Shown here piece after piece: positions 11,991 through 61,800 of a stretch of DNA of 64,000 nucleotides. The first letter of the stretch is position 1. The number at the start of each line of letters is the position of its first letter. Made by a program: the position numbers and the translations under genes. Origin of the DNA: Camelus ferus (taxonomy: Eukaryota); the NCBI RefSeq assembly GCF_009834535.1, contig NC_045696.1, positions 78,556,001 to 78,620,000 of the forward strand. Reading direction: 5' to 3'. The notes below the pieces were generated by a model. It did no database searches. It saw only the letters and a program-made list of their open reading frames with translations, and was not told where the DNA came from.

Positions 11991-13145
11991 TTCTAGGTCT
12001 TTTGTGGTTCCATATAAATTTTATTATGATTTGTTCTAGTTCAGCGAAATATGTCCTGGGTAATTTGATAGGGATTGCATTAAATCTGTAGATTGCCTTG
12101 GGCAGTATGACCATTTTAACAATATTGATTCTTCCAATTCAGGAGCATGGGATATCTTTCCATTTTTTTAAGTCCTTTTTAATTTCCTTAATCAGTGTTT
12201 TACAGTTTTCCATGTATAAGTCTTTCACCTCCTTGGTTAGATTTATTCCTAGGTATTTTCTTACTTTGGGTGCTATTTTAAAGGGGATTGTTTCTTTACT
12301 TTCTTTTTCTGTTGATTCATCATTAGCATAAAGAAATGCAACTGATTTTTGAACGTTAATCTTATAACCTGCTACCTTGCTGGATTCTTCGATTAGTTTT
12401 AGTAGTTTTTGTGTGGACCTTTTAGGGTTTTCTATATATAGTATCACGTCATCTGCATATAGTGACACTTTTACCTCTTTTCCAATTTGGATCCCTTTTA
12501 TTTCTCTCTCTTGCCTGATTGCTGTGGCTAGGACTTCCAAGACTATGTTGAATAGGCGTGGTGACAGTGAGCAGCCTTGTCTTGTCCCAGATTTTAGTGG
12601 AAAGCTTTTGAGTTTTTCACTGTTGAGTATTATGCTGGCTGTAGGTTTGTCATATATCTTTTATTATGTGGTATATTTATACAATGGAATACTATTCAGC
12701 CATAAAAAACAACATAATGCCATTTGCAGCAACATGGATGTCCCTGGAGAATGTCATTCTAAGTGAAGTAAGCCAGAAAGAGAAAGAAAAAAACATATGA
12801 GATCGCTAATATGTCAAATCTAAACAAAAAAAAGAACATAAATACAAAACAGAAACAGAATCATAGACATAGAATGCAAACTTGTGGTTGTCAAGGGAGA
12901 GGGGTGGGAAGGGATAGACTGGGAGTTCAAAATCTGTAGATACTGACAGGCATATGTGGAATAGATAAACAAGATTATACTGTATAGCACAGGGAAATAA
13001 ATACAAGATCTTGTAGTAGCTCACAGCGAAAAAAATGTGACAATGAATATATGTATGTTCATGTATAACTGAAAAATTGTGCTCTACACTGGAATTGGAC
13101 ACAACATTGTAAAATGACTATAACTCAATAAAAAAAAGTTTAAAT
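11991..13145 (+). mobile_element. Young 5'-inverted L1 (ORF2 RT segment inverted 11991-~12666; sense 3'UTR and A-tail ~12666-13145) with 18-bp TSD
   Basis: ORF 12139-12540(-) is L1 ORF2 RT ([13 protein letters not shown]); TSD aaaaagtacaatccacaa at 11973-11990 and 13146-13163. Confidence 0.92.
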
Positions 13146-16673: not shown

Positions 16674-17979
16674 GTCTGTCTTCCTAAGTAGAAATAATCT
16701 CAAAACTTCCTTAGGTATTTTTCCCCTAAAGACTAATTTAAAAATAGAACACTTATTCCCAAAAGTCACTAAATGTACAAACCATCCCTTGAAGTTCACA
16801 TTAGATACTCAAAAGCTACCGTGTAAGAAAGGTATAGCAAATTCACAGCATTTTTATGAATTCCTAGCAAAACTCATTAAAACAAGAAAGGAGTAGACCA
16901 AAACCTAAATCACATCTTGAAAATGAACTGCATTCAGCCAAATATTGATAATGCATATAACCTATAATATAAGTAGGCTGAGAAACTTTTTCCTGCCCAG
17001 GACTACTAAATCACAGGAAAAAAACATTAATGAGAACACTCACTTTTTTTTTTAATTTGAGAATTCATAAAATGTTGACTTTGTTAAAAAGGAATGAAGT
17101 CATTTATAAACATAAATAATAACATACATTGATGTATTACATTCAGGTCATGGAGTAAATTTGGAGGTGAGAGGAGAAAGTCAGACAAAATAGCGTAGAC
17201 AACAAAAGTGAGTGAAAGTAGAGAGGAAGTAAAAAGGGAGAGATAAATGAAATGCGAAAAAACAAACCCTTGTTCTGTATCAGCCCAAACATTTGCCTCC
17301 TCCTATACATCCTGGGTCCCAGTAGAAAGGCAGATAAGTTACTTAAAGGGAAGACTTTGAGTTTTTCTATATAAAGCAAATATTCAAAAATATTTTCAGT
17401 ATTATGTTGGCAATTCTTTAAAAGTACAAAAGCCACATAAATATACTGGGGGATGGGAGGGTAGTTGGGTAAGAGTGAGACATTTTCCCTTGAAACAAAG
17501 ACATTCATTGCTACAATATTTGTACATTTTCAGTACCAACAATACAAAGCATTTTTGAGCCTTGGTTTGGAATGCCATCTTTCTACCTTTTTAAGTTGCC
17601 AACTTTCTATTATTCCTTCAAGGCCCAAGTCAAATATATTCGCACCCATGAAGCTAACCCAGATCCCCAAAGTCTAAATTAAATGTTTCTTCTTCCAAAT
17701 TCCCATAATATTTATTTTTATTTCTATTATGAAATTGAAATTGTATTACAGTTAAACAGTGAGTTTCTTGAAGGAAGATGATGTCATTTACCTAGGTGCC
17801 CCAACACTTTGAACAATTCCTTATATAGTGTGGGCATGTAAAACATATTTGGTGATCTATGCTCCAAATTCCTCCAGCAGAAAGTATTCTATTTAACTAA
17901 TTGTCATATGTCAAAATATCTCCTTATCTTTCATGAAAAAAATAAAAATCCACACACCAGTGACTTAGACTGACCATCT

Positions 17980-20431: not shown

Positions 20432-20481
20432 GTCAGAGGCGTTGGCAGAATTGCAGTTGGCCAAGAAATACAGTGAATATG
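20432..20481 (+). CDS. Exon C (50 nt, phase 2->1): (R)SEALAELQLAKKYSEY
   Basis: cttttccttgtcatag|GTCAGAG...GAATATG|gtatgc; completes the KR codon pair begun in exon B. Confidence 0.6.
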
Positions 20482-22039: not shown

Positions 22040-23295
22040 ATTTTCCCAGAGATGTACAGATGGACATCAGACAGGTGAAAAGGTGCTCAACATTACTAGT
22101 CATCAGGAAAATGCAAATCAAAACCACAATGGGATATCACTTCATATCTGTCAGAATGGCTATCATCAAAGAGATAACAAATAACAAGCGCTGGCCAGGA
22201 TGTGGAGAAAAGGGAACCCTTGTGCACTGCTGGCGGGAAGGTAAATTGGTACAGTCACTATGGAAAACAGTATGGAGATTCCTCAAAAAATTAAAAAATA
22301 GAACTACCATATGATCAGGCAATTCCATTCCTGGGCATCCAAAGAAAACACAAACACTAATTTGAAAAGACATATGCACCCTTATGTTCATTGTAGTATT
22401 ATTCACAATAGCCAAGATACAGAAGCAACCCAAGTGTGCATCCATAGATGGATGGAAAATGAAGATGGCGTATATTCATACATTCATATATATTATTCAG
22501 CCATAAAAATAATAAAATCTTGCCATTTATGACAACATGGATGAACCTAGAGGGTTTCATGCTAAGTGAAATAAGTTAGAGAAAATACTATATGATTTCA
22601 GTTATATGCGGAATCTAAAAAACAAAACACATGAACAAACACAACAAAACAGGAACAGAGTTATAGACACAGAGAACAAACAGATAGTTGCCAGAGGGGA
22701 GGAAGATAGGGGGAGGAGAGAAATAGTTGAGGGAGACTATGAAGTACAAGCTTCCAATTGCAAAATAAAGGAGTCACCCATATAAAATGCAGAGTGTGGA
22801 GCCTATACTCAATAGTTGTATGTTTGTATGGTGACAGAGGGTAAGTACAATTATTATGGTGGTCACTTTGAAATGTATAGAAATATCGAATTACTATGTT
22901 GTATACTAGGAACAAACAAACAAACTCATAGAAAAAGATCACATTTGTGGCTACCAGAGGTGAGGGCGGCAGGAGAGGAAGGGAGTCAAAATGTCCAAAC
23001 TTCCAGGTATAAGATAAATAAGTATTAGGGATGTAATGTACAACATGATAAATATAAACAACACTGCTAAATTTTATATATGAAAGTTTAAGACAGTAAA
23101 TCCTAAGAGTTCTTATCACAAGGAAAAACATTTTTTTCTACTTCTTTAAGTCTGTATATATATGAAATGATGGGTGTTCACTAACCTTATTGTGGTAATC
23201 ATTTTATAATATATGTAAGTTAAATCATTATGCTGTACACCTTAAAGTTATACAATGCTGTATGTCACTTGTATCTCAATAAAACTGGGAAAAGA
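22040..23295 (+). mobile_element. L1 ORF2 3' end and 3'UTR (composite of two 3'UTR pieces)
   Basis: ORF 22060 ([10 protein letters not shown]...[11 protein letters not shown]) is the L1 ORF2 C-terminus; ends tatctcaataaaactggg. Confidence 0.9.
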
Positions 23296-24839: not shown

Positions 24840-25545
24840 TCAAACAGAACTCCAGAGGTAAACAGAGGACACACCAAAAGGAGATGAGGGCAGAATAAGG
24901 AAACCCACAGTGCAGCACACAAGGACTATAGACAATAGGAAGCCCTCGAGTCTTAAAGGGGTCAAGGAGAGTGGGTAGTATTACCGGAATCTAGTTAATA
25001 ATGGGAGCTGTTAATGATACTATATATAGAAAACTCTAAAGGCTCCACACAAAAACTACTAGAGCTGAGAAAAGAATTCAGCAAGGCAGGAGGATACAAG
25101 ATTAATAGACAGAAATCAATTGCATTTCTTTACACTAACAATGAAATATCGGAAAAGGAAGTAAAGAAGCAATCCCTTTTAAGATCACATCTAAAAAAAT
25201 AAAATACTTAGGAATGAATCTCACCAAGGAAGGGAAAGACTTATTTGTGGAGAACTACAAAACACTAACAAAAGAAATTAAAGGTGACTTAAAGAGATGG
25301 AAAGATATCCCATGTTCTTGGATTGGAAGAATTAATATTCTTAAAATGGCCATACTACTCCAAGCAATCTACAGATTTAATGTGATCCCTATCAAATTAC
25401 CTAGGACATTTTTCACAGAACTAGAACAAATAATCCTAAAATTTATATGGAATCATAAAAGACCCAGAATTGCTAAAGAAATACTAAGGAAAAAGAACAA
25501 AATTGGAGGCATATCCCTCCCAGACTTCAGACTACACTACTGCAA
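24840..25545 (+). mobile_element. Young L1 fragment: probable 5'UTR piece fused to an ORF2 segment, no 3'UTR or A-tail
   Basis: ORFs 25014 and 25214 are L1 ORF2 (MILYIEN...[14 protein letters not shown]...PDFRLHY); L1 similarity stops at ~25540. Confidence 0.85.
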
Positions 25546-32239: not shown

Positions 32240-32275
32240 CTTCCCTATGCAGCTTTCCATTTTTGCTTCCAACAC
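32240..32275 (-). other. Candidate 36-nt cassette exon of a minus-strand host transcript
   Basis: cttctataaacag|GTGTTGGAAGCAAAAATGGAAAGCTGCATAGGGAAG|gtaaca; open as VLEAKMESCIGK (phase 0) or VGSKNGKLHRE (phase 1). Confidence 0.3.
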
Positions 32276-33744
32276 CTGTTTATAGAAGTGTATTGATGAC
32301 TAGAATGCTTTGGACTGAGACTTGAGGCAAAATACTATGCGATACTCTTCCTTGCACTACAGTGTCAGGTATGTGACTGGCATGCAACACATAGTTGAGC
32401 AAATGAAAGAATAAACGGTCTATCAAGGAAATCACGTGACAAAGACTGTCACTAAATCCTCCTTTAGTTACAAAGCTGGGCCAGTCGTAGAGAAAGGGAT
32501 TTAGAGCAATACCTCTACCACTGTACACTTACAGCCATATGAATAATCAGGTTCCCCACACACACTCATTCCACTTAAGAATGAAGGATATGTCACAAGT
32601 TCTAAATTGACAGCAACATCAACCCTTAGATTTGTCTCACTTAGTCTACTTTTTTCAACTTTTGAATTAGATGCCAACATTTAAAACAAAGGCATTTCAC
32701 ATAAAATTTGGATTTTGAGCTTCTCTTAGGAAATCAAATGTCTGGCAACTCTGTCCCCAGTCTTGCTTAAGACAATACAGTTACACCCAGGAACTGTTGC
32801 TCCCTCCAGACAGGGCATGTGCTTTCCAGTAACCACATCCCTCCCAGGTGTCTAGTATTCAATCGGCTCCACCCATTTCTGTTCACTGTGGAGCAACTGC
32901 AAGCATCTGATTTTGTAAACTTTGCCATGCACAAACCAGTTTTAATAATGAGTCCAAGTCTCAATTTTGATAATTACTACCAGTGCAACCTTGAGCAAGT
33001 AATTTATCCTCATGGAGTCTCAATTTCATCACCTATAAAACTGTGAAAGTAATCCCATGCCACATCACATGATGACTTTGGGAAGGAAATGAAATTATAT
33101 GTGATAAGGCTTTGTGAACTGCAGAGGCCATATGTATATACATTATTCTTTTTATTTTTTATTAAAATTCTAATAAGCAAAATGTGATCATCTTTGAACT
33201 ATAACATATTCTTAAACAAAATTTAAAGCCCTTAGATTAATAGGTAGGAAAAGAAATTACAAATGTTAACAGTGACTTAGATGTACAATTAAAAACGTGT
33301 GAATATTAGAATTCAGAGACTATGTCATCAGACTTGGCATTATTTTTGTCCAATCCATTTGTACTAAAATAGTTTAATCAAATGTAATGTTATTCAAGAA
33401 AAAATAAGGTCAAATTACATTATTAAAATAAAGATATAAAGCAGACAGGATATGTAATATTTTCATTAATTATTACCAGCTTATCTATACAATAAATATT
33501 TGCTTTTAACATAAAGTAGTAATAATATATCTTAAACACATTTAATGTTAAAGTGTCATAAACAAAAGCAACTATGCTCAAAGTAATAGTATAATAAAAA
33601 TTATAGAATTCAAATCTAAATATCACTGTTACTCAACATTTTACAGTAAAAAAGTCTTAATTTTAAATCTATTCTAATACGTTTGACTGCTATTGTTTTT
33701 GTTTCAAGTTCTCCCTTGAATACAGATGTGTATGTGTATTCAAT

Positions 33745-35774: not shown

Positions 35775-36499
35775 TATAAATTCTATTTGCCACCGAAAAT
35801 GATTTGTGATTCCAGATTCCTTAAATCCTCATGTTAATAGGCATTCAGGCAATCAGGTTGCTAATACTAAAAGTAGCTATGGAGACTGAATATTAAATTT
35901 GTCTCTTAGCCTCCTTGTAGCCAACAGAAAACAAAAAAGACAATGATGCTGACTTCTTTGCAGCTGTAACTATCTCTTCAGCTTGCCAGGATAATTGAAA
36001 ATATTTTTCAGATTACTGTAACTGTTTGAACATTAGGAAATTTTTTAGAGTTATTGATGATTACATACAAAACATACATGCAGATCATATTTAATGATAC
36101 ATAGGTAACATTTAAAGGTTATCAGGAGAAGCAGTCAACATTAACACAAAAATGCTGCCACAAATGTGTTGGCTTTGAAAGTGTTCTAATTTAATAGTGA
36201 TGGGTTAAATTCACCTCTATTTGTTTCAGAATTATATTTGACTCCCAGTCAGTGCCCCAGACTAAATTATTACACTTTGGGTTTACAACCACATAAATAT
36301 GCTGCATCTGAGTGAAGATAAGCCAACAATAACTAACTACTTATTAGTTTTTAGCCTTTGTGATATGTTTAGTTTGTAGCAAACATCATACATACCAGGG
36401 TTTTAGTGGAAAAGAATACAAGAGAATCAAAAGGTAGTTTCTGCCAAAGAGTTGATAAGCTATTGGGAAGGTAAGAATACTAGGTTCACCTAGTAGATG

Positions 36500-37130
36500 C
36501 ATTGCTAGTAGGAAAATAAAATGGTTTAGCTGATGTGGAAATAGCATGGTAGTTCCTCTAAAAATTAAATATAGAGTTACCATATGAACCAGCAATTCCA
36601 CTTCTAAGTATATACCCAAAAGAATTGAAAGCAGGTGCTCAAACAGATATTTGTATGCCAATGCCATAGGAGCACTATTCACAATATCCAAGAGCTAGAA
36701 ACAACCCAAATGCCATCATTAGATAAACAAAATGTGGTATATAGAGTAATAACAGAATATTATTTAACCTTAAAAAGTAACAAAATTCTGACATATGTTA
36801 CAGTGTGGATGACTTTTGAAGGCAATATGCTAAGTGAAATAAGCCAGACACAAAAGGACAAATAGTGTGCAATTATATTTAAATGAGGGACACAGAAAAT
36901 TAATAGAGACAGAAAATAGATGGCTTTTGCCAGGAGTTGGAGGAAGAAGGGAAATAGAAATTCTTGCTCAAAAATTTCAGTTTTGGGAAATGAAAAAGAT
37001 CGGGAAATGGATGTTGGTGGTGGCATAGTAATGTGAAAGTATTTAATGTCACTGAAATACATACCAAAAAATAGTTAAAATGGCAAATTTTAAGTCATGT
37101 ACATTTTTACAATTTAAAAAGAAATAAAAA
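36500..37130 (+). mobile_element. L1MB-like 3' end
   Basis: atagagttaccatatgaaccagcaattccacttcta...atgctaagtgaaataagccagacacaaaaggacaaata. Confidence 0.85.
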
Positions 37131-41270: not shown

Positions 41271-43019
41271 GTAAGTGTCAAATTAAAATGATTTTAGGTT
41301 CCACTGATTACAATTAATGGTGATATTAATAAGAAATTACATTATTTGTACCAATAAAATTTATGATAGAAAGCTGAGATGAAAATTTTAAAATATACAA
41401 GAAGGTACATAATTTTTAAAAATTATTTTAGGGGAAACATGTACACCGCTGGGTCATAGTTTGATTTCTAATTTTACTGTACCATATGGAAAGTTCTGTA
41501 ATATAAAAGTCAATAATATACATTTATTATATCATGCATGTGAACAATGTTAAAAATTAAAATTGTCAAGAATTAGTGTACACTGTGATGCCCCATAAAC
41601 TTAATTAAGCAAACCAGAAAATAAATGATGAAAATTTTTAATTGCCAAAGGAGCTGTCAAAACTTCCAAAGTTGATTAGGTCAAAGTGTTAGGTGTTTGA
41701 AGAACTACTGGAAAAAGGTACAGGGCTCCTTATCAGGGAAGAGACAAGAAAAGGTAAAAAGAGTAATCATAAGAACCATAAAAATTAGAGAAATCTGAAG
41801 CCATTAAAGTAAGGACAAATATTGCCACCTATTTAAAAAGTACAGGAAGACATGGCTGTATTAGAGCAAAGGGCAAAAACAGATATTTGATAATTATATC
41901 AACTCCAAAAACTCCAAAAGAAGCAAAATGGACAAAGGAGAAAAAACCATGTTTGTTTAATGAAGCAAAAAACAGTGAAATGTATTTTTATCAAGAATGA
42001 ATAAACTGTCCCTCCCTAAATGTTATTAGAAAATTCGTTCATATGGAACAAATTCCTTCACCAATATTTCTGAATATTATGTTAATATGCAAAAGCATAT
42101 TTTTATAGTTACCTTTATTATGTTGGTAATTTGATAGTCTTACACAGTCTCCCTAATTGATTATACTCATACTGTTAACATAATATTATCATCTTTCTAA
42201 AAAGCCTGATATTCCTTCAGAAATGTCTCCTAGTGCCATGGTTGTATTTCAGTTCATGTCATTTTTTGGGCAGAAATGCCTTTTACTTTTGTCCTTCATC
42301 TCTGACTCCCATTTCCAGCCTCAATTCAGATGCATCACTCTTTTAATCTTCCTTGAAAACCCCACCCAGACTTAGAGTCCTTTGTCTTAGAGTTCCTTAC
42401 ATGTACCTCTGTTATATGAATAATGAAGCACTATATTATAAAATTGTTCTCTACTAAATTATTTCTTAACAACAGGAAAAAAACATTTCTTATTCTTTTT
42501 ATTATTGCCATGGCCTACCAAACACCTTGAAATAAACTGGACATTCCATAATGACCTACTGAATGAAGGCCATGCAGGAAGGACCTAAAATCCTGCCATT
42601 GTGATTCAAATCATGCAATAAGCTTATACTGTATATTTTAATAAGCAAAACCAGAGCAAATATTTTTTATTTAAATTTCATGCTCATGAAAATAAAAGGC
42701 AGCCTGTTTGAAGGTGTGAAATTTAATCATCACTCTGTTACTACATTATTTGAAACGTAACAATACATTAATAGGTATTTTATTGATACTTATTTATCTT
42801 AAAGAAATAGAAGTACTTTGACTGTTTGGTAATTTTACAAATCTACCCATTTTGATTGTTTTGACACACTACTCATAAGAGAATCACCAAGATTAAACAC
42901 TTATATGTACAAAAGAGTACTGATATTTGGAAATGATATATCTAAGATAATTTGCAACAAGCCATATTATTTGATCTGAAAAAATAAAAATAGCATTAGT
43001 AAAGGAAATAAAACAATAC

Positions 43020-44000
43020 TCAGTTTTATTAAATCCTGAAATAAATACATATATATGTACATACATATGTGTATGTGTATATTTTTGTAAATCAAAACTG
43101 ATATCAAAGTTAAGATGTAGTTTTGTATTTTAACATGGCAGTATATTGTCATATACTAATCTTATAAAATATTCCTTAAAAATTGTTTAAGATCCATATA
43201 TGGATATGCTGTAAATTATTTAATTGTTCTCTATCCTTGGAAATTCATTACAAATATATTCTTCAATGTACATTATATATACATTTTGTGTACTTTTCTG
43301 ATTATTTAGGCTAAGAGAAACTGGCTTTTTTTTCTTACCATTTGTGTGTTTCTTTCAGATTTTTTTTTCATAAAAACAAAACTGCCTTCAAAATAACATT
43401 TGCATTTCAATGTTTTGTTGTTTTTTGGTCATGGTATTTATATATTGTGGACAGTAAAAGGAATAATTTGAAATTTTGGCTATTACAACACAGAAACTTA
43501 AGGCAATAAAATTCTGAGGCTCTTGTTTAGATCATTCTGTCTATGCTGTTCACTCATTCAGATCTCATATGAAAATGTCATCAACAGGTAAAGTCTTCCT
43601 AAAGAGACTACAAAGTATAATGTTTCTTGGTAAATAATAGCAACATTAACATCAAAATGTAACAGTGTTTTTAATAAACTGCCTAATTTCAAATAACCTA
43701 TTTAATTTAAAATAACCCTACTTAATGGCTAATAACTTATAAAATTAAATAAGTAGGTAGTGCTAAAAAAAAGTTTGAATAACTACTCAGAAGGCACTTT
43801 TCAAAGCTGAAGAAGGAAGCAAATATCATTTTGCATTGTAGAAGCTGCAATCTAGGTAACATTTAATTACTCTGAAATTAACAGTTTAGGTTTATGACAT
43901 AGGATCAGTGCAGTCCATTCTTCACATTATGTCAATGATTTTACATCAGGTCTTCAAAATGGACTGCCATGAAATAAAACATGCATTGGACTTAAAAGAC
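43020..44000 (+). repeat. Old direct segmental duplication, copy 1 (partner ~51780-52680), containing exon-like remnants at 43562-43629 and 43842-43855
   Basis: Shared blocks tttcttacca, ttggtcatggtat, ggacagtaaaa, aattctgagg, tagatcattct, atatgaaaat, cttaatggctaata, tctgaaattaaca, taggtttatgac, atcagtgcag. Confidence 0.9.
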
Positions 44001-45019
44001 CATTGTACACAAAAGAATTAATACAGAAATTTTCAAATGTTTGTATGTTCAAAAGATTAATGATTCTTGGGAAATATGTATGATACAACAATTTGCAACC
44101 AGGTAATATTTTTGTCAACATTATTTAAAATATCAAAATAGTACTAACAGAGGAAATAAAATACAGATTAATTTTATAAAATCCTGGTAATTAAAAACTT
44201 GAAAAGTGATTAAAATCCCAAATAAATCCAGAAAATAACACTGTGTGATCCTGTAACAATCTGAAACACTGTTATAAATACTCTCAAATATATGTTCACA
44301 TCACATCAAAAAACAGTAAAATTATTTTAAAAAGGAATGAAAAATAGAAAAAGTAAGACTCAATCATCTATAAAAATTTACCATTCAAAATAAAGAAATT
44401 AAAAAGTGAAGAGCACAAGTAATTTCATTTTCTATATATTGGCTTACCTTTGGTTATTATTTTATAGACGAAAGTAACGAGCACCTTGTGAAAAAGGAGT
44501 TTTGCAGTTACGATGAGAAAAATGTCATGACTACCAGCCAAAAGCAAGAAAAGAATGAATAATATTACAAATAAGTATATTTGAGGGTAGAACATATTCA
44601 ATAGTGGACTTCTCATATATCAAAAGTATAATGGTTCAACTGAGTAGAAGTGTATTTTTAAAATACTAGCACTCAGGCCCGAACTCCATCAACCAAGACT
44701 ATTACTGTGCATAACAGCACACAACTTTACAACTCTGCTCTCTTATATTTACCAGATGGTATTTTAAAACTGGACAGAATTCTGACACAAAAGATTTGTG
44801 CAGGTGGAGGCTTAATATACAGCCTTCAAATAGAACATTATCTTCTGGGAACATAAACTATGATTTAAAAAATTCAAAGGAAGAGAGGGACCAGGAAAGA
44901 ACATTAATATTTCCTGGGTGCCTTCTATAATAGTTATAGAAACTGGAACACTTATTCTTAAAACTCAACAGCTAAACACCTATTTATTTTGAAACTTAAG
45001 ATCTTTAAATCATGTGTAA

Positions 45020-45250
45020 ATAGTAAGTATTTATTTGCTGGCACCAAAATATAAGGTCCAGATCATTACATTCATTATTTAACTTAATTCTCTCAGCAAC
45101 TCAGTTACGTTGGTATGACTATTTGCATTTTCCAGGAAAGGAAATTGAATCCCAGGACATTAGGTAATTTATCCAGAATCACACTAGTAGATAGTTCAGT
45201 CAAACACATCATTCTGGCTCCAAGTCTGTGCTTTTATAATGCACCCTACT
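45020..45250 (-). mobile_element. MIR
   Basis: cttaattctctcagcaactc...gcattttccaggaaaggaaattgaatcccag. Confidence 0.55.
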
Positions 45251-46169
45251 GTCTACCATATGGTGAGGCGTGCACTTGGCAAGACTCTTCATTTAATGAT
45301 GAATGATGACCACAGTCTCAAAGGAAACACTTTTCTGGTGTGCATAACATCAGGATTTAGTAACCAATCACCTCACATCAAGTTTCCACCTCTAGTCTTT
45401 CACTGAGGAAACCCTGGCTTCAGAGGGAAAGACAGCTGATCCCAAAGTAATTTGCCTCTAAAAGGAAGTAGTCTATTACCTTGCCTTAAATAATGCAGCA
45501 TTCAGTTATTCCTTCCTGCCAGAGTGACAGTTTAAGCACAATGCATTAAAAAAAACTGTTTTCTCCTGTTCTAGCTGTCTGTTATTTAATGCCTCATACA
45601 CCACTTGTCTGGAAGTGATGGATAAATATTTGAAGGGAAAGATGCATCATTCTGAATGCTCCATGAAATTCAAGACGGATAAAAGTCAATGTTTCAGGCT
45701 CATCTACTTTTAGCTTTCTCCCTATAATATGGTAAAAACAACCTTTAAATGTTTCAAAAGACTCTTGTAGTTAAAAAACAACAATAACAACAACAACAAA
45801 AAAACCCCAAAAAAAAACAACTTTATCAGTTTCTGTATCAATTTTTAAGGTACAATTTTTATTCTAGTATTTAAGGATTTTTTTAATCTGAGGAAAAATA
45901 AATGTATTTGAAACAATTAAGTTGTCTTTCTGACAAGATTTTGAGAATATGACTTATTTTTTGGATCATGTTTTCACATAACAAAAAGAGAAGCAACCAA
46001 ACAGTACTATCAACACTGTCACACGTTATTTTTAACGAGTAAAACCACAAACTTCACATCAAAAATCTTTTCTTAAAACCAAGATGAATTTATTTATAGC
46101 AATAATACTTGCAAACACTCATTAAACACTACTGTACTTTGAGCCAACAACTGTGCAAAGATATTTTAC

Positions 46170-46520
46170 CTAAAATACCACATTTACTGGGATAGTTCTT
46201 CCCCCTGATACCCAGTGGCTCTCCCTTACCTCCTTAAGTACTTGCTTAAAATTATCTCAAAGAAGCTTTCCCTTATCACCTTAATTAAAATTGCAAACTT
46301 TCTTTCCCAGTAATCTCTATTGTATTTCCTTCATGTTATTTTTTTTTCCTGTAGCATTTATCACTATCAGGTAGAGTATATATTTTACAAATGTATTTGT
46401 TTATTGCCTATCTCTCCAACTGTGAATGTAATCACCATCAGAGCACAAATACTGTAATTATTTGTTTGTGAATTATTTATACGTATTTTCTTCAGTGCAG
46501 TAGCCCCAGTGTGTATGATA
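46170..46520 (+). mobile_element. L2 remnant
   Basis: gtagcatttatcactatc...tctctccaactgtgaatgtaatcaccatcagagca. Confidence 0.6.
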
Positions 46521-49500
46521 ATGGTTGGCCCAGGGTTGCTACCAAAGATTATTAATTTAATGAAGGTGTTTAGTCTTTGCAAACAACCCTTTGTGATATT
46601 TTTTTACCCATTTATTGAAAAAACTAAGGCTGAAAAGACAAAGTGACCTATTGAGTCATAAAGCAAGCCACTACTCAGGCAGGTTTGTGGATTCTCAAGT
46701 TCTATTCACTAGACTGCTTCTAGAAAACGGAATTATCCAAACCAAAGTTTGTCTATTTGTTCTACAGGTTTGTACATCTTTGAATAAATTATGAACGTGC
46801 CTAGAAGTGATACCTTTTAAATACCCTTCATGACTGAGTCCTCTTTCAGAAGGTCATTCACTCTGGATGAGCAGGTAGCTTTGGAAGGGACATAAATGGG
46901 CTATGAGGGAGGACAGGGATCAGCTCAGACCATCTGTATCAACCCTGGAAATCAATGTGTTGACAGATGTCACAGCCTGTTTTCCCTCATAACCAGTAAC
47001 CTGAATGTCATGAAGCATTTGCTGAGACAAGAAAATGAATTATACACAAAAGTTAAGCATACGTAAGGACTTTATTTGAAAAGAAAAACATAGTGAAAAA
47101 CTACAGATACATGAAATATCTGTACCTCACACAATACTTAATATATATTGCAGAATGAATGTGTGTATTAAGTCCTGTGTATTTTATTTTTTCATCTTTC
47201 TCTAGCCCATTTTGAAAATAAAATCAAGTAATTCAATTTCTCATTACACACACCACATTTATACACTTGTATTCTTTTTTATTTTTTCCTGCTTTTAAAC
47301 AACAATCAGGGCCACAAGCAAAGATTAGGCAGCATTTGAGGAACCTGATGAGGAGAATGTATTTTGCTACTGCCAGAACAGAGACAAGATAGTCAAATTC
47401 AGAAAGTAACGACTTCAAAGAAAGTATCTTGGCTGTAAGGAATGGGTGAAAGAAGCCATAATCGTCTGGCTGCCCCCACTTTTAGTACTGACCATTTTCT
47501 TCTCACCAGTCCCCTGGACCAGAGTGACAGTTATGGTAGGGGTTGTAAGGCTGGAATTGTAAAGCTCAACAGAACTGAGTAACTTTCTAGAAAGACAGTT
47601 TGCCTGAACTATTCTGTCTATTCTTTTGTCTACAAATGCTTCTAATGCAGTAAAGAATATGTAACCAAAAGAAACAGAAAGAATCTGACCAATAGAGAAT
47701 GTTAACAGAATGCGGGGAATGCATGGGAAGTGAGAACAGTTACTCTTTGGACTCTATTAGTCACACCAAAGAACATCGTGCCACGGTGAGCAATTCTGGT
47801 GAACGTAAGCAGAATCAAAAATAAACCAAAACCTTCTGAAAGTGAAAGAAAGTGAAATGAATCATTTCTTTATCCAGGGAATCTGAAAATCATGTAGCTG
47901 GACTCAAGAAAGTTCTACCAGAGAGACTCATTTAGCTTTATGAGCTGGCAGATCCTACCTGAAATCCAAGGGACCTGATTATAAATATGTAACAGAAGAA
48001 CACCCCAAAGGTAAGCTGTAATTTCCAATATTGGTTGTAACTCACCACCAGTTTTCTGTTTAACAAGTTCTTTAGTAAACAGAGCTACTGTAGTAATTAA
48101 CATAATAATTTATGTCCAACCCCAACTCCTCCAACTGACATGTTTCTTTAACATTAACTTTGGAATAAGTGAAAATCTTGCTAACTGTAGTGGCTAAGAC
48201 TATCAAAAAGGGATACAGGCTGAAAAAGGAACAGCGATTCCTGATCCAAATGTTGGTAGATTTACTTCCACTCCTATCCTTTTGAAAATGGAAGATATCA
48301 GGAAAAGTGGGGATATATTTTTAAGCATACACATATGACAAATTTATGCAGAAATGATATTACCTTTTAAATGAGTTGGAAACTTAGAACGCTTAAATTT
48401 TTCTAAAATTTATTTTAAGATTAAATGAGTGATGGTAAAAACGTATGGCCCAGGTTTTCTCCAGAAAAGAGAACCAATGAGCTCTTATGTACTCCAATTA
48501 AAGAGCGATCTTTCACATCTTCTCAAAAAGGCAAAATACCTACTAAATACCTAAGCAGTGACATCAGGGCAAGACACTACATGATTAATAATGAAAGTCA
48601 TACGTTAATGGTATTTTAAATAATATTTTATTTTAACTAACAAAATGAAAAATTACAATAATATTTGTGTTTCAGAAATATGTAGTTTGATTTTTAAATG
48701 AGTAAGCATTATCTATATAATACATTATGCTTCATTTACACTACAGTAAAAGCTAATTAAAAAGCAATCACTATGCCATAATATATTTAAAAGTTGCCTG
48801 AAATGGTATATTATATTGAAATATTTGGAGTGACATTCATCACATTCCTCATGCATAACATGATACTAATAATTATCCTTTCAACTTTAGAATTCCTGAG
48901 CTAATCAGTCACTTCGTGGTGCAGGGTACAATTGCTCATTTTCTTGCCCACTTAACAAGAACGATATGCTTATTTGAACACTGGCTTTGCATGGATAGGA
49001 CTCACACTGTCTCTGTAATATGTGCAGATGTAAGTGGGTAAGAAGGGAACGCTGAACCCCCTCAACACAAGCCCAGTAGAGATGAGGGACAGTCCCTGCA
49101 GAAGGGAGCTACCCTGCTGAATACAAAAAAGTATCACAGTGTCCAGTTTAGGATCTTCTGCAAGATGATTATTTTTAATACTTACCCTTTAGTACAAGTA
49201 TATTATAAATATACTACAGTATAAAATCACAAGTTCTAAAGTATTATTATCATAGAATTCACTTTCACATTCTTCATACATGGTTTGCCAATTGAAAGAG
49301 TACTTCTGATAACGCCCTAAAGAATTACTGAGAATTAAATAGAAAAAGCCCCAAAAGTCAAAGGAAATGCTTAAACCAATGATTAAGCTATTTATTTTTC
49401 TCTATTCTAAAACAGTGGTGCTGCCTTCCAAACATAAACTGGTCTTAGCACTTGTTCAGCCGTCACCTTAAGGGGATGGTAACTGAAAGTCATACTCCAC

Positions 49501-50749
49501 TAATTAATCAGCTGCAGACTCATTTAGGAACCCCAAAACAACTATTCTCTGTTTCTAATCTTTCCTTCCACAGCAAAGAAGGCCCACTTGTTAAATATAA
49601 ACATAACTGCCCCATAAGTAATATTATTGCCTCAGCTGTATGTTCATTTATTTCTGTGATAAGAATAATGTATGTAGTGCACCCAAAAGTAGTTGATTAA
49701 CTAAAGACGGTTGCCTTTTAAGGTTTTTTGCAAAAAAAAATTTTTTATTTAGAAGGATTTAACACAGTTTAAGAATAATTAGGTATGTAATCCTATCTGT
49801 CTTGTCTTTTTTTCTTCGTCCCCAACCATGCAGATATTTTAAGACCAACTATTAGAAATTTTACAAATGCATATAGAAAGAAAAGAACAAATGAATCATC
49901 GCCTCCCTACACATATCCTTACAAAGTTCTAGGATTATGGTACATAGAAGCCAAAACAGAACCAATTAGGCAGTGAAGAGAACCAATATGCTTAAAGAGA
50001 ATATCATTGAATGAGAATGAGGGAGATGGGCACCAAGAATTCTGTATAATGCACAATATAACATGGATAACTTTTGGAAATAATGTAATAGTGCTACAAA
50101 ATGTTAGAAGAGGAATCAATAATAGCTCTGTCACCATGAACCTTTGTTCATACTTTGACAAACCAAAATGCAAGGACCATTTGGGAATCCAGATTTTAAT
50201 TCAACCTCTGCAAGTAACTCAAAATATCTCGATTAAGCCATTTAACTTTTTTGGGTCTCAGTTTTCCTATATGTAAAATGAAGAGCTAGAAATAGACAAT
50301 CTTTCAGATCATTTTCAACTTTAATAATTGATGACAATATCTTCAAATACTTAACAAATGAAGTTTTCTTTTCTCACAGGGATGAAAAGAGAAAACTTTT
50401 CTTTGCAAACTTTCTTGAAATAATTTATGTGTCACTTCATTATTGCAACATCCTATCACAATACAGATATCTATCTGATATGTTCATACTTGTTAAATTG
50501 CACGTAAAAAAAAGATGACCTCAATTCTGAGAACCCTGAGGTCAGAGACCAACCATGAACCATGAGTATCTAGTGCTGAGCAGGCTCTTAATAAAGTGAC
50601 ATTGCATGAAAAAAAGAGCGAGAGTAAAAGATGGACATTAATAGTTCTGTGAATAAATGAATCACCTTTGTTAACTATTCACATTTGAACAAACTGGATT
50701 TATCTTAATTATCAATTACACAGAGAAATTATATATGATAAAATACATG

Positions 50750-51620
50750 CTTCAGCTCAGCTTATCAGGGATAAGACCATTATTCAACAATTAGTATCAA
50801 GAATTCTCAATGCCAACTGGAAAATAAAAGCAAAAAGTAGAACTTTTCATTTCTTTATCTACTCATTTCAGCATAATAAATTCCGAAAAGATAAAAAAAA
50901 ATTAAAGACATTAAAACTTTAAATACTAGAATAAGTTAATAAGTATTTTGTATACTCGTTGGTGATAGAGACCCCTCTAAACCTGTTTGATAATTACAAA
51001 AATATTTAATTACCATGACACATTTAACTACTTTAAGAAATTGTAATGATGTGCAGTAAAAGGTTACTATAAATAAGGCTTTAAAAATTAAAAGTGGAAA
51101 ATAAAAAGGGAGAAAAAAAACTTGAGAGGAAGTTTCTTATAAACAAAGATCTCTTGTAAATCAATAGGTTAAAACCCAACATACTAAAAGAAAATTAGGT
51201 AAAGACATAAATAGGTAAGTTATAAAAATTCTGGTCAGTTAATTAAATACAGTATAATATCATTACCATATCCAAAGAATGGAATGAAAATGGGATTTGC
51301 TACCATATCAGGCAGGTGAAGATGAAACACTTTACTATGTTAAGAATTACTGAAGGCATGGAAAAATCATACACAGTTGATAGAATTTTCTGGAAGACAG
51401 TGTGGTATGTTCAAACTTAAAGCTGACTTTAGCCTTTGACCCAAAATTCCATTATCAAATCTTTTCTTAAAAAGTAATCTCACAGTGAAATATCCATCAA
51501 AGGGAACTGGATAGTAATTAGAGAAATATCCAGTGTAATACATGATCACCATTTTGATCAGACTACAGAAATAAATTCTATAGTTGTATATAAGTTTAGG
51601 GTTATCTAGTAGTACTCTGC
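50750..51620 (+). mobile_element. Old L1ME-type fragment
   Basis: ttattcaacaatt; agcctttgacccaaaattcca; aaatatccatcaaaggg. Confidence 0.6.
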
Positions 51621-51779
51621 AAATATTTTTAACTAACCACATTAAATATTTTTATTCTGTCATTTTATATTTAAATGTATTTTAATTATAGAAACTTTGA
51701 AAAATACATAAAAGCATAATTGATAATAATTTAACCTCTGTTCCATAAATTAAATATATTATACTGTGGGGAAGAGCCT

Positions 51780-52680
51780 TCCAGTCTACTTCAAATAAAG
51801 TGTGTGTGTGTTCACTGGGGTGTGTGTTTTTCTATTTCTATAAACCACAATTACAATTAGCTCTATGTGTAGTTCTGTAACATTTTCCAACATAGCATGT
51901 TTTACAAGTATAAGTACATTTCAGTGAACAATATGTAAGCATCTTTGTGTGCATTTTGCTATTTATTTACCATAAAAACTTGTTCCTAATATTTAAAATA
52001 CTTTTTCAAATCTGACTTACAACTTGAAATTTTTCTTACCACTTGAAGTTTTTTTCAGGTTAGTTTTGTTTTGTGAAAACAAAATGCCTCCAAAAGGAAA
52101 AAAAATAATACCAATTGTTCAATACTTTATGGGCTTTTGGTATTGGTCATGGTATAAATACCACGGACAGTAAAAAGGAATTTTCTGAAATTTTAGCTTA
52201 CAGTCATTAAACCAAAGAAGCTTGTAACAATGTAATTCTGAGGATATTATCTAGATCATTCTATCTGTGAATATTTACTACCTCAGAATCGATATGAAAA
52301 TCTTACCAACAGAGAAAGACTGTCTGAAGAAAATGCAGAACATAGTGTTCCTAGGTAAACAACAGCAACGTGAACACCAAGATGTAACAGTATTTTGAAT
52401 AAACTGCTTCATTTCAAATAATCCTCCTTAATGGCTAATAGCCTCAAAATGTCTAAGTGACTGTAACAAGGCAATTTCAAAGATACATATGACTGTTACA
52501 ATTCTGCCTTTTAGAGATCCCAATCCAGGTAACTATTAATCATTCTGAAATTAACATGTTAGGTTTATGACGTAGAATCAGTGCAGCCGATCTCCACATG
52601 ATGCCAATGACCATAGACCTGATGCTCAAAATGGAGATCACTGTCATAGAATGAAACACACACTGGACTTAGAAGAACAA
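51780..52680 (+). repeat. Old direct segmental duplication, copy 2, containing ATG 52084 and exon-like 52287-52354 and 52515-52528
   Basis: Colinear with 43020-44000; both copies keep 68-nt and 14-nt AG...GT units. Confidence 0.9.
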
Positions 52681-52770
52681 AATTTATATGCCAATTCTAA
52701 AATGATCTGTGGCTCCTTGAGCAGTTCTTATTTCTCCTCCAACTTTAAAAAAATTATAAACTTACAGAAG

Positions 52771-52773
<3 letters not shown>

Positions 52774-52838
<65 letters not shown>
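52774..52838. repeat. (ATT)n microsatellite, ~21 units
   Basis: Direct reading; source of the poly-Tyr in ORF 52651. Confidence 0.97.
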
Positions 52839-52842
<4 letters not shown>

Positions 52843-53549
52843 GAGGGAATGAGATATTATATGCATAAGTGAATCATTAGTTGTAAACTTTTTAACAAAT
52901 ATAAAATATTTTCAAAGATCTTGAAATAAGATAGCTACTTCCTGAAATTTCAAACTATAAGTAAAATGTTAGCATATGTGAATTTTTTTCTAATTTTCAT
53001 TATTATATGTTAAATAGAACACTAAGGTAAATTTACTACTAAATAGGATCATCCTATTTTCCAAGTAAATTTGGATGGGTTGCATTTTATAAAGTTTTAT
53101 ATAAAGTAATTTGGCTCTTATTTACATTTTAGGTGAAGAGTTTGAATCGCTTGTTATAAAAATCCATTCAGATCTCTGAAAACAGTCATAAAATGGATGT
53201 AAGAATGTTAAAAGTTAAAATATTGTTAGTTTCTAATAACAACAGCATCAAAAAATACTCAAGAAGTTGGCTAGAGATTTAGAAATGAGAGCAATTTAAA
53301 GAAACACAACAGATGCTATATGATACCTTAGAATTGAAACACTGAAGCTTTCATATTTATTCAACAAATGATGACAGTAACCTTGCACATCCAGTCCTAT
53401 TTTACCCTCTCAAAGCCAAGAAATCAGATATCATTATACTCAGCTTAGCAGTGAAGAAATAAAGGCTCATATTAAATGAGCACTATTTAGAGCTCATGTG
53501 AGAAACCATGAGTTGCCCATCCTCTTCATTCTGAGAGAATCTTTTAACA

Positions 53550-54190: not shown

Positions 54191-55167
54191 ACTCTATCTT
54201 ATACACATGCATATACAGACCTTACGTGTAAGCATGTATTTCATGAATACTGTTTTCTCCTCCGTATGTTCTCCCTGATGATTCATTCATGCTCTCTCAT
54301 CCTTCACTCCCTCACTTGGTGATATGAAAAGCATAGTTAAGTCTTAGCTCTGAGATAATGGGAGCAAGTCCCAGTGGTAATCTCTCCAATCTTGCAGAAA
54401 ATGATTCAACTGTTATTGATTCTCTTTTTTTTTTCCTTGAAAGCAAACTTGTGCAATAAAAATTCTCCCTCTTGTCAACAAATCCTCTTAGCATCACATA
54501 ATCATCTTTTCCTGAAAAAGTAGCTAGGGGAACATTGCTTGCAATTTCAACATGCTCCAGGAGTCAAATTACTAGCAAAGTTTTTGGCAATTTTGAACTA
54601 GACAGAGGAAACTAGGAGAGTATAGACATCGGACTGTCAAATACAGCTCTGCCTCCAATTTACAGTTATTTTCCTATGAGATGTCTACCTATCCACTGAG
54701 GTGCTATAATCATATATTCTTAAGGTGACAGCATAATATGCTCTTGTTATTCAGTACACTTCAGTTTGCCTAAGGTAAAAAGACAGTAGCATAAAGTGTC
54801 CAAAATATGCCATCTTCAAGTTAATAAGATTGATAGCCCATTATGTTTCTATTACTTAGACAAAAGCCAAATCATGTAATTAGTTCACTAAAAGAAAAGC
54901 ATTTTGACCTATTTACTAAAAATCTTTTATAATTTGAATTCAGATTAACTATTATCCAGCAGCCACTCAAGTTCATTTAAATGAGATTTATTTAAATACC
55001 TTTGTGAGAAAAACATGCAAGTATTTCTGCATCCCCAATTGGATATCGCTTTCATTATCAACAGACTCATTTTGATCTCCTGAATCCTGAGTTCCTACAA
55101 GAGTTCCCTAGTTGAACTATGTCTGGTTCTTCAAATTACTCTGATGAAAATTTAAAACTGCGATAGG

Positions 55168-58800: not shown

Positions 58801-61800
58801 TATTGATATTTAATGAGTACTAAGACTACATCGTCGGTGTATGTAAGTATATGAATTAAACGTACAAAAATCTAAATGTGAGTATATTGAAATTTTAAGG
58901 TTCCATACAAGCAATCAAGAATACTAGGACACAAAAACAAAAAATTGCATAGTCTTGTATTACAGAGAACACTTAACTGTTGCTGGGATCCACTTTTCCA
59001 TCCTAGGAGTAACTGGAACTTACTGCATAGGCTTTGTTAGTGGGAGGCTTACCAGTATGAACTTTTTTGGCAGTCCCCAAATTCTTATACAGCGGATGTG
59101 GAAACTTATGTGATTTTGTCATCAGATTTAATACCCAGCCAGTGCGTCCTCTAGAAAGGAATAGTTTTCAATTTCACTAGAATTATACACATACTTCTTG
59201 GTACCAGAAATTACAATTTCCAGTTTAAATTCAGGATGATTTTGAATGAATGATCCCAAAACACCAAAGAAATACTCTGAGATGATATATAAACAGTCAG
59301 CCATCCTTTAGGGCCTGTACAAAAAAATGTGCCTTGCTATTCCTAATTAAATAACAATAAGGTACAATGTTATAAAAGTCTTCACTCCAATCTACTTCCA
59401 ACTTCACTTTAAAGCACCCTATGATTTATATGTTCTGCTGCTATCTTAAGTGTGATCAGAAGTATATGGGTAAATTCCTTAGTGAAAAGCTGTGTTAATG
59501 TTAATGTTCATTTTATATTTCCCATCAGATTTATTACATCTTTAAAAAAGCATGTTCTCCTCTACACTTTCAACATCAAGTACCATGTTATATACCCTGT
59601 GGGAACTCCATAAATACTCTGAAACTCACATCTGGGTTTGGGAGTTCAAATTAGGTACTCTTTGCATGGAAACTCCCTTGTATTCATGTATAATTTACAG
59701 TATGTTATTACACAGTTGATATAAGTACAACAAACTGTTTAGATTTACTTCTGTGCCTTGGGGTTAAACTTCCACAGAACATTTTCAATGTACTGTATAA
59801 GATTTTAGTTTCATTGTTCTAGAGCTTTTTTATAGTTTGACTTAATAAAATAAGAACTATGGATTTGTTTTTACAGTTATTTAGCAAATTTTAAGTGTCT
59901 CATACATATTAGGCATTTCCCTTCACTTTAAAATGTACATTTAATATCCTAGTGCGGATCCCAAATGTGGTTAACAGTAAGAGAGAGACAGAGATAAAGA
60001 CAGAGAGAGAGAGATGGAGAGAGGCAGCAGGAGGACAAGAGGGGGAGAGAGGAAGACATCATATACAAAAGCCAGTTACACTAAGTAGTGCAAGCTTTGC
60101 TAATATAATCAATGATACAGGTCCCTAAGAAAAGTAAACATGATTTTCTTGCAATTTTTTCCTTGGGCTTATAAGAAGATTAAAAATCTTCCTTAACTCC
60201 TCAAAAGACATTCTTTGAATCCTTTCGGTTGTGGTGCTACTTCTCTGTAACTGTTTCCTGCTTTCCCTCACTCTTCCAATCCATTTTTGTTAACAGAAGT
60301 AGTGGAGGGAGGAAAATCATCTCTATCAATTGCTGGTACAACTAACATTTCAAAGTGAACCACAGGCAGAAAAGCTGGGGCAGAAAGATGTGTGGGATGC
60401 TGTGTAAACCATCGCTAGATGATGGATTTTTAGTAACTGAAAGAAAGGCAGATCAGACTCAGTTCCCAGGCTCTCTAAAAAGGAAGGGTACATATTTTAT
60501 TCTTTAAAGTCACCTAATAGCTTCTTAACTAATGTGCAGCTGGACCTATGAGCAAGCCTTTTCTGGTCTACTTTCTGATTCATCAAAACCTTCTTTTCTC
60601 CTACAATAATAAAGTAATTTTCCTTGCTCTAGGGAAACTTTGCCTTAAGAATAGCCTACAGCAGGAAATAGTCACCTGTATGAGGTAAATGCACTATTAC
60701 ACAGCACTAAGTTATTTGTAAGATTACTGCTTTTAAATCTCTAGTTGTTACCTATGTAGTCTGAAGAGCTAATGAATTTCATGCTAGAGAACAGTTTATC
60801 AAAGCACAAAATGTCCCCAATCCAGCTGAATAAAATTCATCCTCATCCTTAGAACATTAACCCCTCAAAGAGTTTGATGCTCTAGGACAGACAACATTAA
60901 TGATTCCTCATATACAACTGAGAATGTGCTTTACCCTCTGCTAGAGATCTAAAAGCTTTGGGGACTGGAGCACAACTTAATTTCCAAATCTATACAATCA
61001 CTAACATCTGCAAAAATGTGCTCAGAAATCATACCAAAACGTCCTCATTTTACTGAAGTGCTATTAGGCATAATATATCCAATGAGGCATTATAAGAGGT
61101 TATTATGTTACATTACAAGGGCTTAGACTTTTTTGAAAAAATGGAATACTACAAAGATTTGCCTTTCCTACGTGCAATTTCTTTTAAAAACTGAGTTCTT
61201 AAAAGTTAAAAATTCAATTTCTAAACTTCTATCAAAATTAATGTTCAACCTTGTAAACACTTCTGTCCTTATTTGTCCTCATCAAAGATGTACTCCATCA
61301 TTGAGAATGCCCAGTGATTACACGTATAAATTAAAGCTGCCTGCACATGGAGTACCAAGGTTTCCATTGGCTTTTCAAGTCAAATTCAAGGTATATGTTG
61401 ACAAAAGTGGTCTTTGTAACACCTAGTGAAGGATTATCACAAATACCTTTCTGTGGAGGGAAAAGTAAAAGAATACGAGAGTTTAATAAAATGCATAAAT
61501 ATAATAAGAAATAGCTTAAGGGAACTTACCAATCATTTAAAGGAGAAAACAATCTGAAGATATATTTTCCCCATATATTGAAAATAATCAGATATCAGTA
61601 TCTCCAATACCTGATTTTGTTTAAGAAATTAAAGAAGACATATTTTTAAAAATTTACTTAAACATATTAGGAAATGTGTAGCTTTCATTAACGCACATAC
61701 ACTTAAATGTAGACAGTTACTCAGAGACACACCCTTCTTATGTTTATGTCTTTTGTGCCAAGAGCCTATGAATAGTCATGTGTTGTGAAAAAAGCATCAA

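Follow-up and report, generated by a model that had tools for sequence, protein, structure and literature searches.

Two diverged, directly oriented copies of one segment, lying about 8.7 kb apart, most likely record a single ancient duplication event at this locus, in AT-rich mammalian DNA that appears to be non-coding, and the exon-like AG..GT units that they carry appear to be passengers; we place the probability of this reading at roughly 0.65. The copies, B' (copy 1) and B (copy 2), form part of a present order A-B'-A'-X-B along the window, by which we mean the whole 64-kb stretch of DNA analyzed. This order is a directly oriented DUP-NML-DUP layout. Because the signals resembling exons are faint and have enjoyed no particular conservation, an ordinary duplication scar is the most likely explanation.

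Layout and extent of the duplication

The segments and the left joint are as follows, in order along the window.

42901..43048, plus strand: segment A, the left bracket of copy 1 (blastn E 8.7e-8; 108/142 identical, K2P 0.290)
43039..43067, plus strand: left joint A/B', with AAATAAA at 43039 and then a TA/TG microsatellite; placed to about 20 nt
43049..44039, plus strand: segment B' (copy 1), 991 bp, with homology firm from 43329 and weak from 43068
44041..44198, plus strand: segment A', the second copy of the bracketing repeat, beginning 1-2 nt past the end of the B'/B homology
44199..51799, no strand assigned: segment X, a 7.6-kb single-copy spacer that has only its self match in the window at E<=1e-3
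51800..52704, plus strand: segment B (copy 2), roughly 905 bp in length and the putative template

The earlier note had described an ancient direct duplication, and both the two colinear copies and their age were borne out. Self-comparison of the window by blastn paired 43329-44002 with 52030-52679 (E 8e-53, 66.6% over 710 columns including gaps), and nhmmer within the 64-kb window paired 43329-44038 with 52030-52703 (E 3.6e-65). Between 43329-44039 and 52030-52704, 488 of 638 aligned columns (76.5%) were identical, a MAFFT alignment of the two copies gave 71.5% identity over 660 columns, and the K2P distance between B' and B was 0.287. The unevenness of identity along the alignment was not significant (P 0.10). 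The proposed extent of about 0.9 kb is firm from 43329/52030; beyond that point a weaker homology reaches left to about 43050/51800. This longer extent is supported yet weak: the extension 43068-43255 versus 51821-52011 scored higher than any of 100 controls from real sequence or any of 100 shuffles. With a query begun past the microsatellite, three scoring schemes let 0, 6, and 0 of 600 controls match its score. No third copy was detected in the 64-kb window by nhmmer at E<=0.5, apart from one match at E 0.22. Segment X contains a 7SK-derived copy.

A second direct repeat of 148/158 bp, absent from the earlier note, brackets copy 1 at 42901-43048 and 44041-44198. The A/A' alignment scored 109, compared with control maxima of 50 and 37. 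At the right joint, the B'/B homology ends at 44039/52704 and the A/A' homology begins at 42901/44041. The K2P distances of the two repeats are nearly equal (0.287 for B'/B versus 0.290 for A/A'), and their identities (488/638 versus 108/142) do not differ by Fisher's test (p 0.91), a coarse comparison given that A has only 142 columns. No A-like flank was found upstream of B (score reached by 25 of 100 controls), nor an A'-like flank downstream of it (7 of 100 controls). The 7-nt word AAATAAA at the left joint is common to the start of B (51793); a shared word of 7 nt was reached by 9% of 3575 control pairs, and the microhomology at this joint is thus not significant. It shrinks to 5 nt when A' is used instead, and the right joint has only 4 nt.

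Exon-like units and their conservation

The exon-like units of the two copies are listed below with splice-site scores, which come from rough self-made weight matrices and rank sites within the window only.

43359..43453, plus strand: counterpart in copy 1 of the first exon-like unit, 95 nt, without an ATG and differing by 16 nt in length from copy 2
52059..52169, plus strand: copy-2 form of the first exon-like unit, 111 nt, with ATG 52084 (A at -3) and a conserved, weak donor at 52170 (-2.6)
43562..43629, plus strand: 68-nt AG..GT unit of copy 1, with one stop in the frame first proposed and a second frame open
52287..52354, plus strand: 68-nt AG..GT unit of copy 2 (acceptor -0.1, donor 1.9), 46/68 identical to copy 1
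43842..43855, plus strand: 14-nt AG..GT unit of copy 1
52515..52528, plus strand: 14-nt AG..GT unit of copy 2 (acceptor 1.1, donor 5.1), 8/14 identical to copy 1

Of the features named previously, ATG 52084, CTG 43382, the 68-nt and 14-nt units of both copies, and the quoted peptides are present in the sequence. The further claim that the duplication preserves these splice-like units failed on the comparison of identity inside and outside the putative exons, which the earlier note had itself proposed. The three units were 68-77% identical versus 77-81% for the surrounding DNA across six alignment settings, and the units were never the more conserved class; this lack of excess conservation is what the earlier note had said would count against it. 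For the 68-nt and 14-nt units together, 54 of 82 positions were identical versus about 77% around them (p 0.025-0.10 for lower conservation than the flanks); a first estimate of p 0.01 for units below flanks was alignment-dependent (p 0.015-0.34). The G+C content of the units is slightly elevated, and G+C has the higher mutation rate here. Among 68-column windows, 13% have an identity as low as that of the 68-nt unit. The numbers of conserved AG (19/35) and GT (11/29) dinucleotides were within the range of other dinucleotides.

The splice signals were similarly modest. The copy-2 acceptor at 52058 (score 4.0) is present, but GTTAGT directly after it reaches an equally good donor score (4.5). 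The score level of the 68-nt acceptor (-0.1) is reached by 6.3 AG sites per kb, and copy 1 has a donor-like site at 43588, inside its 68-nt unit, that is absent from copy 2.

With respect to reading frames, the frame set by ATG 52084 translates as MPPKGKKIIPIV..., and the hydrophobic peptide CSILYGLLVLVMV lies outside that frame. Two conserved donors, 52152 and 52170, were tried from this ATG; the first produces a stop at the joint and the second leads into the other frame, so that neither reaches the NRYENL frame first proposed. The observation that another frame is open in both 68-nt units stands, but 30% of neutral pairs would show as much if openness in any one of three frames is accepted.

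Several other coding interpretations were rejected. For a minus-strand exon, the best-scoring conserved donor lies at 52039/43338 (4.2/4.5), but the nearest conserved acceptor above zero in both copies is at least about 285 nt away, and stops interrupt that interval in the six-frame translation. A single long pseudogene reading frame (receptor, transposase) is interrupted by stops in 12 of 12 frames, and its best Pfam match (E 0.046) falls below the curated cut-off. YENL/YENV could suggest an immune-receptor tyrosine-motif tail, but its frame has no connection to the ATG, and a search of proteins 73-2000 residues long found no candidate with three shared words. A duplicated terminal exon at 44468 versus 53134, alike by eye, had a score reached by 50 of 100 controls and by 16% of 500 controls.

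The case for an unannotated gene

The best surviving alternative, which we consider rather unlikely, is that segment B holds real plus-strand exons of an unannotated spliced gene (111 + 68 + 14 nt, phases 2-2-1-0) encoding a fast-evolving, ~60-residue microprotein from ATG 52084 or giving a non-coding transcript, with copy 1 as its dead duplicate; the duplication geometry would be unchanged. In copy 2, the spliced 193-nt chain has a single open frame, which is both the frame of the ATG and the frame open in both 68-nt units, and the copy-1 chain has 2-3 stops in every frame; 6.7% of random 193-nt stretches from the window are open in some frame. The dN/dS ratio over the 68-nt and 14-nt units is also lowest in the ATG frame (0.24, versus 0.64 and 0.93 in the other frames). 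However, the excess of synonymous change falls short of significance (P 0.08-0.16, or 0.35-0.39 as the best of three frames), and the low ratio is due to a high pS (0.64), pN (0.27) being no lower than the flank divergence of about 0.23. Fast-evolving exons could likewise yield units less conserved than their flanks.

The three acceptors and two donors first proposed are the only conserved plus-strand sites that score about zero or more in both copies, and CTTAC, presumably a branch-point-like element, lies 20-21 nt upstream of the first acceptor in both. These signals have to be set against a first donor of only -2.6 and a 68-nt acceptor of only -0.1. When thresholds were fitted to the sites, 3-4% of neutral simulations produced two such units by chance; looser thresholds raised this to 29-62%. 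An open-frame chain of three units appeared in 0-0.7% of simulations with fitted thresholds and in 2-10% with loose ones (700 runs for each setting). The simulations were run without indels, and both the thresholds and the donor were chosen after inspection of the data.

Searches for relatives point away from a gene. A phmmer search gave 0 matches against 1.84 billion representatives, in libraries whose mammalian coverage was without a positive control, although a simulated orthologue was found in 28-29 of 30 trials at 70% identity (10-24 of 30 at 60%). No Pfam family was matched at the curated cut-off by the six frames of either copy, and no host gene emerged, as none of the 30 long ORFs and 128 exon-like ORFs of the window reached that cut-off. 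The minus-strand ORF 54315-54563 gave 301 candidates with no match among them and no PDB match. A mixed three-peptide profile likewise gave 61 candidates and no match, but dilution of the profile limits the weight of this result. For the 37-residue frame, the ESM Atlas offered a best value of 0.87 in unnamed clusters (recognition 1178) and no lead, and a metagenome pattern scan with 0 matches is uninformative because the L1 control also gave 0.

Two RNA-Seq runs from one study contain 0.59-0.62 of the words of the region (9.9 kb), but a share near 0.6 over that length also fits intronic RNA or DNA carry-over and is uninformative on splicing; other runs with small shares (0.16, 0.06) carry no weight. 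A more specific version of this alternative is less probable still. According to it, copy 2 may contain three fast-evolving exons encoding a microprotein of ~60 residues from ATG 52084, basic at its start and including an aromatic stretch, and a single skip-and-return event some 70 million years ago may have left 8.7 kb upstream a dead copy in which the ancestral state of the gene survives as a fossil.

Origin of the duplication and comparison with known rearrangements

For the favored duplication scar, an ancestral order A-X-B would have become the present A-B'-A'-X-B by one of two routes. In the one-step route, a replication fork would have copied A, jumped forward by ~7.6 kb to the start of B, and, after copying B, returned to where A begins and continued, a template switch with two jumps. 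In the two-step route, an 8.66-kb head-to-tail tandem duplication would have been followed by deletion of the 7.6-kb X from the first copy. Both routes yield an identical sequence, and we favor the one-step route at about 55:45; it is indistinguishable from duplication with later deletion because neither joint has microhomology beyond chance (9% of controls equal that of the left joint). Both copies would then have drifted without visible constraint. At a neutral rate near 2e-9 per site per year, K of 0.29 would date the duplication to about 65-75 million years ago.

L1-mediated insertion with a long target-site duplication is a known process, and copy 1 might be an L1-type, RNA-mediated insertion of an unspliced B transcript, A/A' being an unusually long target-site duplication. 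The geometry is that of an insertion with a 150-bp target duplication, the insert being bracketed by a direct repeat of that approximate length, but we regard this origin as improbable. By eye, both joints lack a poly(A) or poly(T) tail and the ends of A lack a cut site of the TTTT/AA type, the L1 endonuclease consensus, signals that 0.29 substitutions per site could have erased. Furthermore, self-comparisons revealed no L1 piece or L1 end next to B', the template is just 8.7 kb distant and has the orientation of the insert, and the microsatellite at the left joint also occurs at the start of B and therefore came with the template. Independent insertion of one old dispersed repeat at both places is very improbable: its age would fit, because two L1-like fragments in the window are equally diverged (K2P 0.281), but it cannot account for the 150-bp repeat of the same age around copy 1 only, the 12 frames match no transposase or reverse-transcriptase family, no third copy occurs in the 64 kb, and terminal inverted repeats are not common to the copies (of four end pairs, three score no higher than controls do, and the remaining one exceeds the 95% bound, at 29 versus 22, only in copy 2).

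Tandem duplication of an exon or gene with decay of one copy is also a known process. The locus resembles it in having exon-like units in both copies, with copy 2 open and copy 1 broken, but differs in having no host gene, homologue, or excess unit conservation.

The duplication scar has its closest parallel in human PLP1 rearrangements, for which the sections of the report used here describe DUP-NML-DUP arrangements in direct orientation formed by two template switches (PMC6902434). As in those structures, two duplicated segments (A and B) accompany a single-copy X within the window, the joints A/B' and B'/A' match, A' starts at 44041 where B' ends at 44039, and both duplications are of the same age. 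The PLP1 cases covered in those sections are recent, disease-causing, and often large, with single-copy intervals from ~2 kb to megabases and, in some, paired Alu or LINE elements where the segments join (PMC6902434), whereas the segments described here are 0.15 kb and 1 kb, fixed, ~29% diverged, and joined without a recognized repeat. The FoSTeS/MMBIR model involves serial template switches with short microhomology at the joints and copies in direct orientation (PMC2583991). The 7-nt word shared at the left joint resembles this model, but it lies within chance expectation and the right joint adds nothing beyond chance.

The locus would thus represent a very old, very small, and fixed example of a rearrangement geometry known in human disease, of little importance as it stands. 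It suggests that a long "target-site duplication" can arise without a visible retroelement. If the three-exon frame were true, the locus would hold a small mammalian gene that is new and carries its own fossil paralogue, useful for dating and for tests of fast evolution.

The duplication, its flanking repeat and their setting

Comparison of the window with itself by blastn recovered the two-copy direct duplication described in the earlier note, pairing 43329-44002 with 52030-52679 (E 8e-53). By nhmmer, 43329-44038 was paired with 52030-52703 (E 3.6e-65), and no third copy was found within the window. The copies are identical in 488 of 638 aligned columns (K2P 0.287); a MAFFT alignment of the same copies gave 71.5% identity and a distance of 0.37, so the copy distance depends on the alignment. 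Of the longer extent previously assigned to them, a weaker extension, pairing 43068-43255 with 51821-52011, stands up to controls. With this extension, copy 1 measures 991 bp and copy 2 approximately 905 bp; no homology was found further up- and downstream, where the scores were equalled by 7/100 and 14/100 controls. A 19-nt tandem repeat is present in copy 1 only (43673-43726), and a (TTA)23 run lies approximately 70 nt beyond the end of copy 2 (52773-52842), with no counterpart at copy 1.

A second direct repeat, absent from the earlier note, brackets copy 1, giving the present order A-B'-A'-X-B:

42901-43048, first unit of the bracketing direct repeat (A)
43049-44039, copy 1 (B')
44041-44198, second unit of the bracketing direct repeat (A')
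44199-51799, single-copy spacer of 7.6 kb (X)
51800-52704, copy 2, the inferred template (B)

A and A' match with a score of 109, compared to control maxima of 50 and 37, and are identical at 108 of 142 positions (K2P 0.290), a divergence indistinguishable from that between the two copies (p 0.91). Similar flanks were not detected around copy 2 in comparison with controls. At the right joint, copy homology ends at 44039/52704 and A' begins at 44041. At the left joint, the end of A (43048) and the first position showing homology to copy 2 (43068) are separated by a TA/TG microsatellite, which is matched by a similar tract where copy 2 begins. The unit A'-X-B spans 8,664 bp, in agreement with the spacing of 8.7 kb reported earlier. 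X also contains a full-length, diverged 7SK-derived copy (46699-46994, minus strand; Rfam RF00100, 63.3 bits, E 5e-14), which is probably a processed pseudogene.

The surrounding sequence is AT-rich mammalian DNA (G+C 28-39% per 2 kb). Several fragments, regarded as L1-like from their ORF2-like frames, were found by blastn of the window against itself at 6514-7235, 11988-12446, 22058-22769, 25015-25545, and 36498-36868 (mutual identity 67-82%). Two pairs of these fragments served as the age scale; the duplication is similar in age to one of them (K2P 0.281). On an assumed neutral rate, it would be about 65-75 million years old. Between 0.98 and 0.99 of the words of 43000-52900 were present in fourteen runs from three organisms (~2,000 million letters; DNA, recorded or guessed, or of unknown kind). 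Because eight rows of this comparison are marked as possible sources of the sequence, these shares mainly show that the sequence is not confined to a single assembly.

Origin of the segment order

The order A-B'-A'-X-B corresponds to the directly oriented DUP-NML-DUP pattern of the PLP1 rearrangements described in PMC6902434, which involve two template switches: the first passes over an interval that stays single-copy, and the second resumes copying where the first segment begins. The route proposed for such events is FoSTeS, with microhomology of short length (PMC2583991). Here, one switch would skip X and a second would go back to the start of A. The left joint has a 7-nt word in common, as much as in 9% of control pairs (5 nt with A' instead), and the right joint has 4 nt. 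The same sequence would result if the whole 8.66-kb unit had been duplicated in tandem and the first copy had later lost X; the one-step origin is slightly favored, since such a deletion would have to take 88% of the unit yet spare both ends. Less likely is an L1-type insertion of copy 1 that produced a long target duplication, since the joints show neither a tail nor a cut site nor an L1 end.

Splice-like units and reading frames in the copies

The splice-like units were confirmed in both copies:

43359-43453 and 52059-52169, plus strand, first unit in copy 1 and copy 2
43562-43629 and 52287-52354, plus strand, 68-nt unit
43842-43855 and 52515-52528, plus strand, 14-nt unit

The claim that they are preserved did not hold, as their identity is 68-77% versus 77-81% in the flanks and under six alignment settings they were never more conserved. 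Among conserved plus-strand AG/GT pairs, a score of approximately zero or more in both copies is reached only by the previously named sites (three acceptors, two donors), which speaks for real exons of some kind. However, the sites score low (6.3 sites per kb do as well as the 68-nt acceptor of copy 2), conserved AG (19/35) and GT (11/29) are not above other dinucleotides, and three conserved sites of comparable score lie on the minus strand, the best donor among them. That donor (52039/43338, minus strand; scores 4.2/4.5) overlaps the branch-point-like CTTAC of the plus strand, and therefore one motif serves both strand readings. Two conserved units arose in 3-4% of neutral simulations when the thresholds were fitted to the sites seen here, and in 29% and 62% when they were relaxed; these rates carry no correction for the earlier note having picked this duplication from many windows. 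Real exons of any kind are unlikely.

The hydrophobic stretch and the NRYENL frame of the earlier note are both out of frame with the ATG at 52084. From this ATG, the frame is closed by a stop codon at the splice joint via donor 52152, whereas via the conserved donor 52170 it enters the second frame open in both 68-nt units and stays open through the end of the 14-nt unit. The resulting 193-nt chain of copy 2 (52059-52169, 52287-52354, and 52515-52528) is open only in this combined frame, and every frame of the copy 1 chain is interrupted by two or three stops. With 700 simulations per setting, conserved chains of three units that keep a frame open appeared in 0-0.7% under fitted thresholds and in 2-10% under loose thresholds. 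The dN/dS of 0.24 in this frame (permutation P 0.08-0.16) is low solely because synonymous sites differ much (pS 0.64); pN (0.27) is not below the flanking divergence. Relatives of the second frame were not found by phmmer among 1.84 billion representatives, a library whose mammalian coverage had no positive control; a simulated orthologue was detected in 28-29 of 30 trials at 70% identity and in 10-24 of 30 at 60%. The NRYENL frame yielded zero candidates among proteins of 73-2000 residues. RNA runs containing words of the region exist, and word share cannot show splicing. A host gene was not found, with the curated Pfam cut-off reached by 0/30 long ORFs and 0/128 exon-like ORFs of the window. 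A coding microprotein in copy 2 is less likely than exons in general, though it keeps a small probability.

Other exon-like units in the window

Further units were recorded elsewhere:

2155-2360, minus strand, high-scoring splice unit without an open frame
17001-17166, plus strand, high-scoring splice unit without an open frame
20432-20481, plus strand, 50-nt unit open in two frames, its acceptor strong (7.6)
32253-32368, plus strand, high-scoring splice unit without an open frame
44468-44559, plus strand, acceptor and 30-codon frame ending in a stop, with CTTAC before the acceptor as in both copies
47878-48010, plus strand, 133-nt unit in X upstream of copy 2 (acceptor 5.2, donor 7.2), no open frame
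54316-54511, minus strand, 196-nt unit that scores decently at its splice sites (4.8, 4.2) and contains an open frame
60633-60684, plus strand, high-scoring splice unit with a 16-codon frame

The 20432-20481 peptide had no match as part of a diluted three-peptide profile search, and 54316-54511 had no relatives in Pfam, PDB, or the sequence database. The 44468-44559 unit did not resemble the copies or 53134 significantly in comparison with controls, and had no Pfam match. If copy 2 did belong to an unannotated gene, the 47878-48010 unit might be one of its non-coding exons. The units at 2155-2360, 17001-17166, 32253-32368, and 60633-60684 illustrate how frequent high-scoring splice units are in this window. 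The exon reading is unsupported by conservation or homology; the duplication itself is real, old, local, and of a tidy, known geometry.
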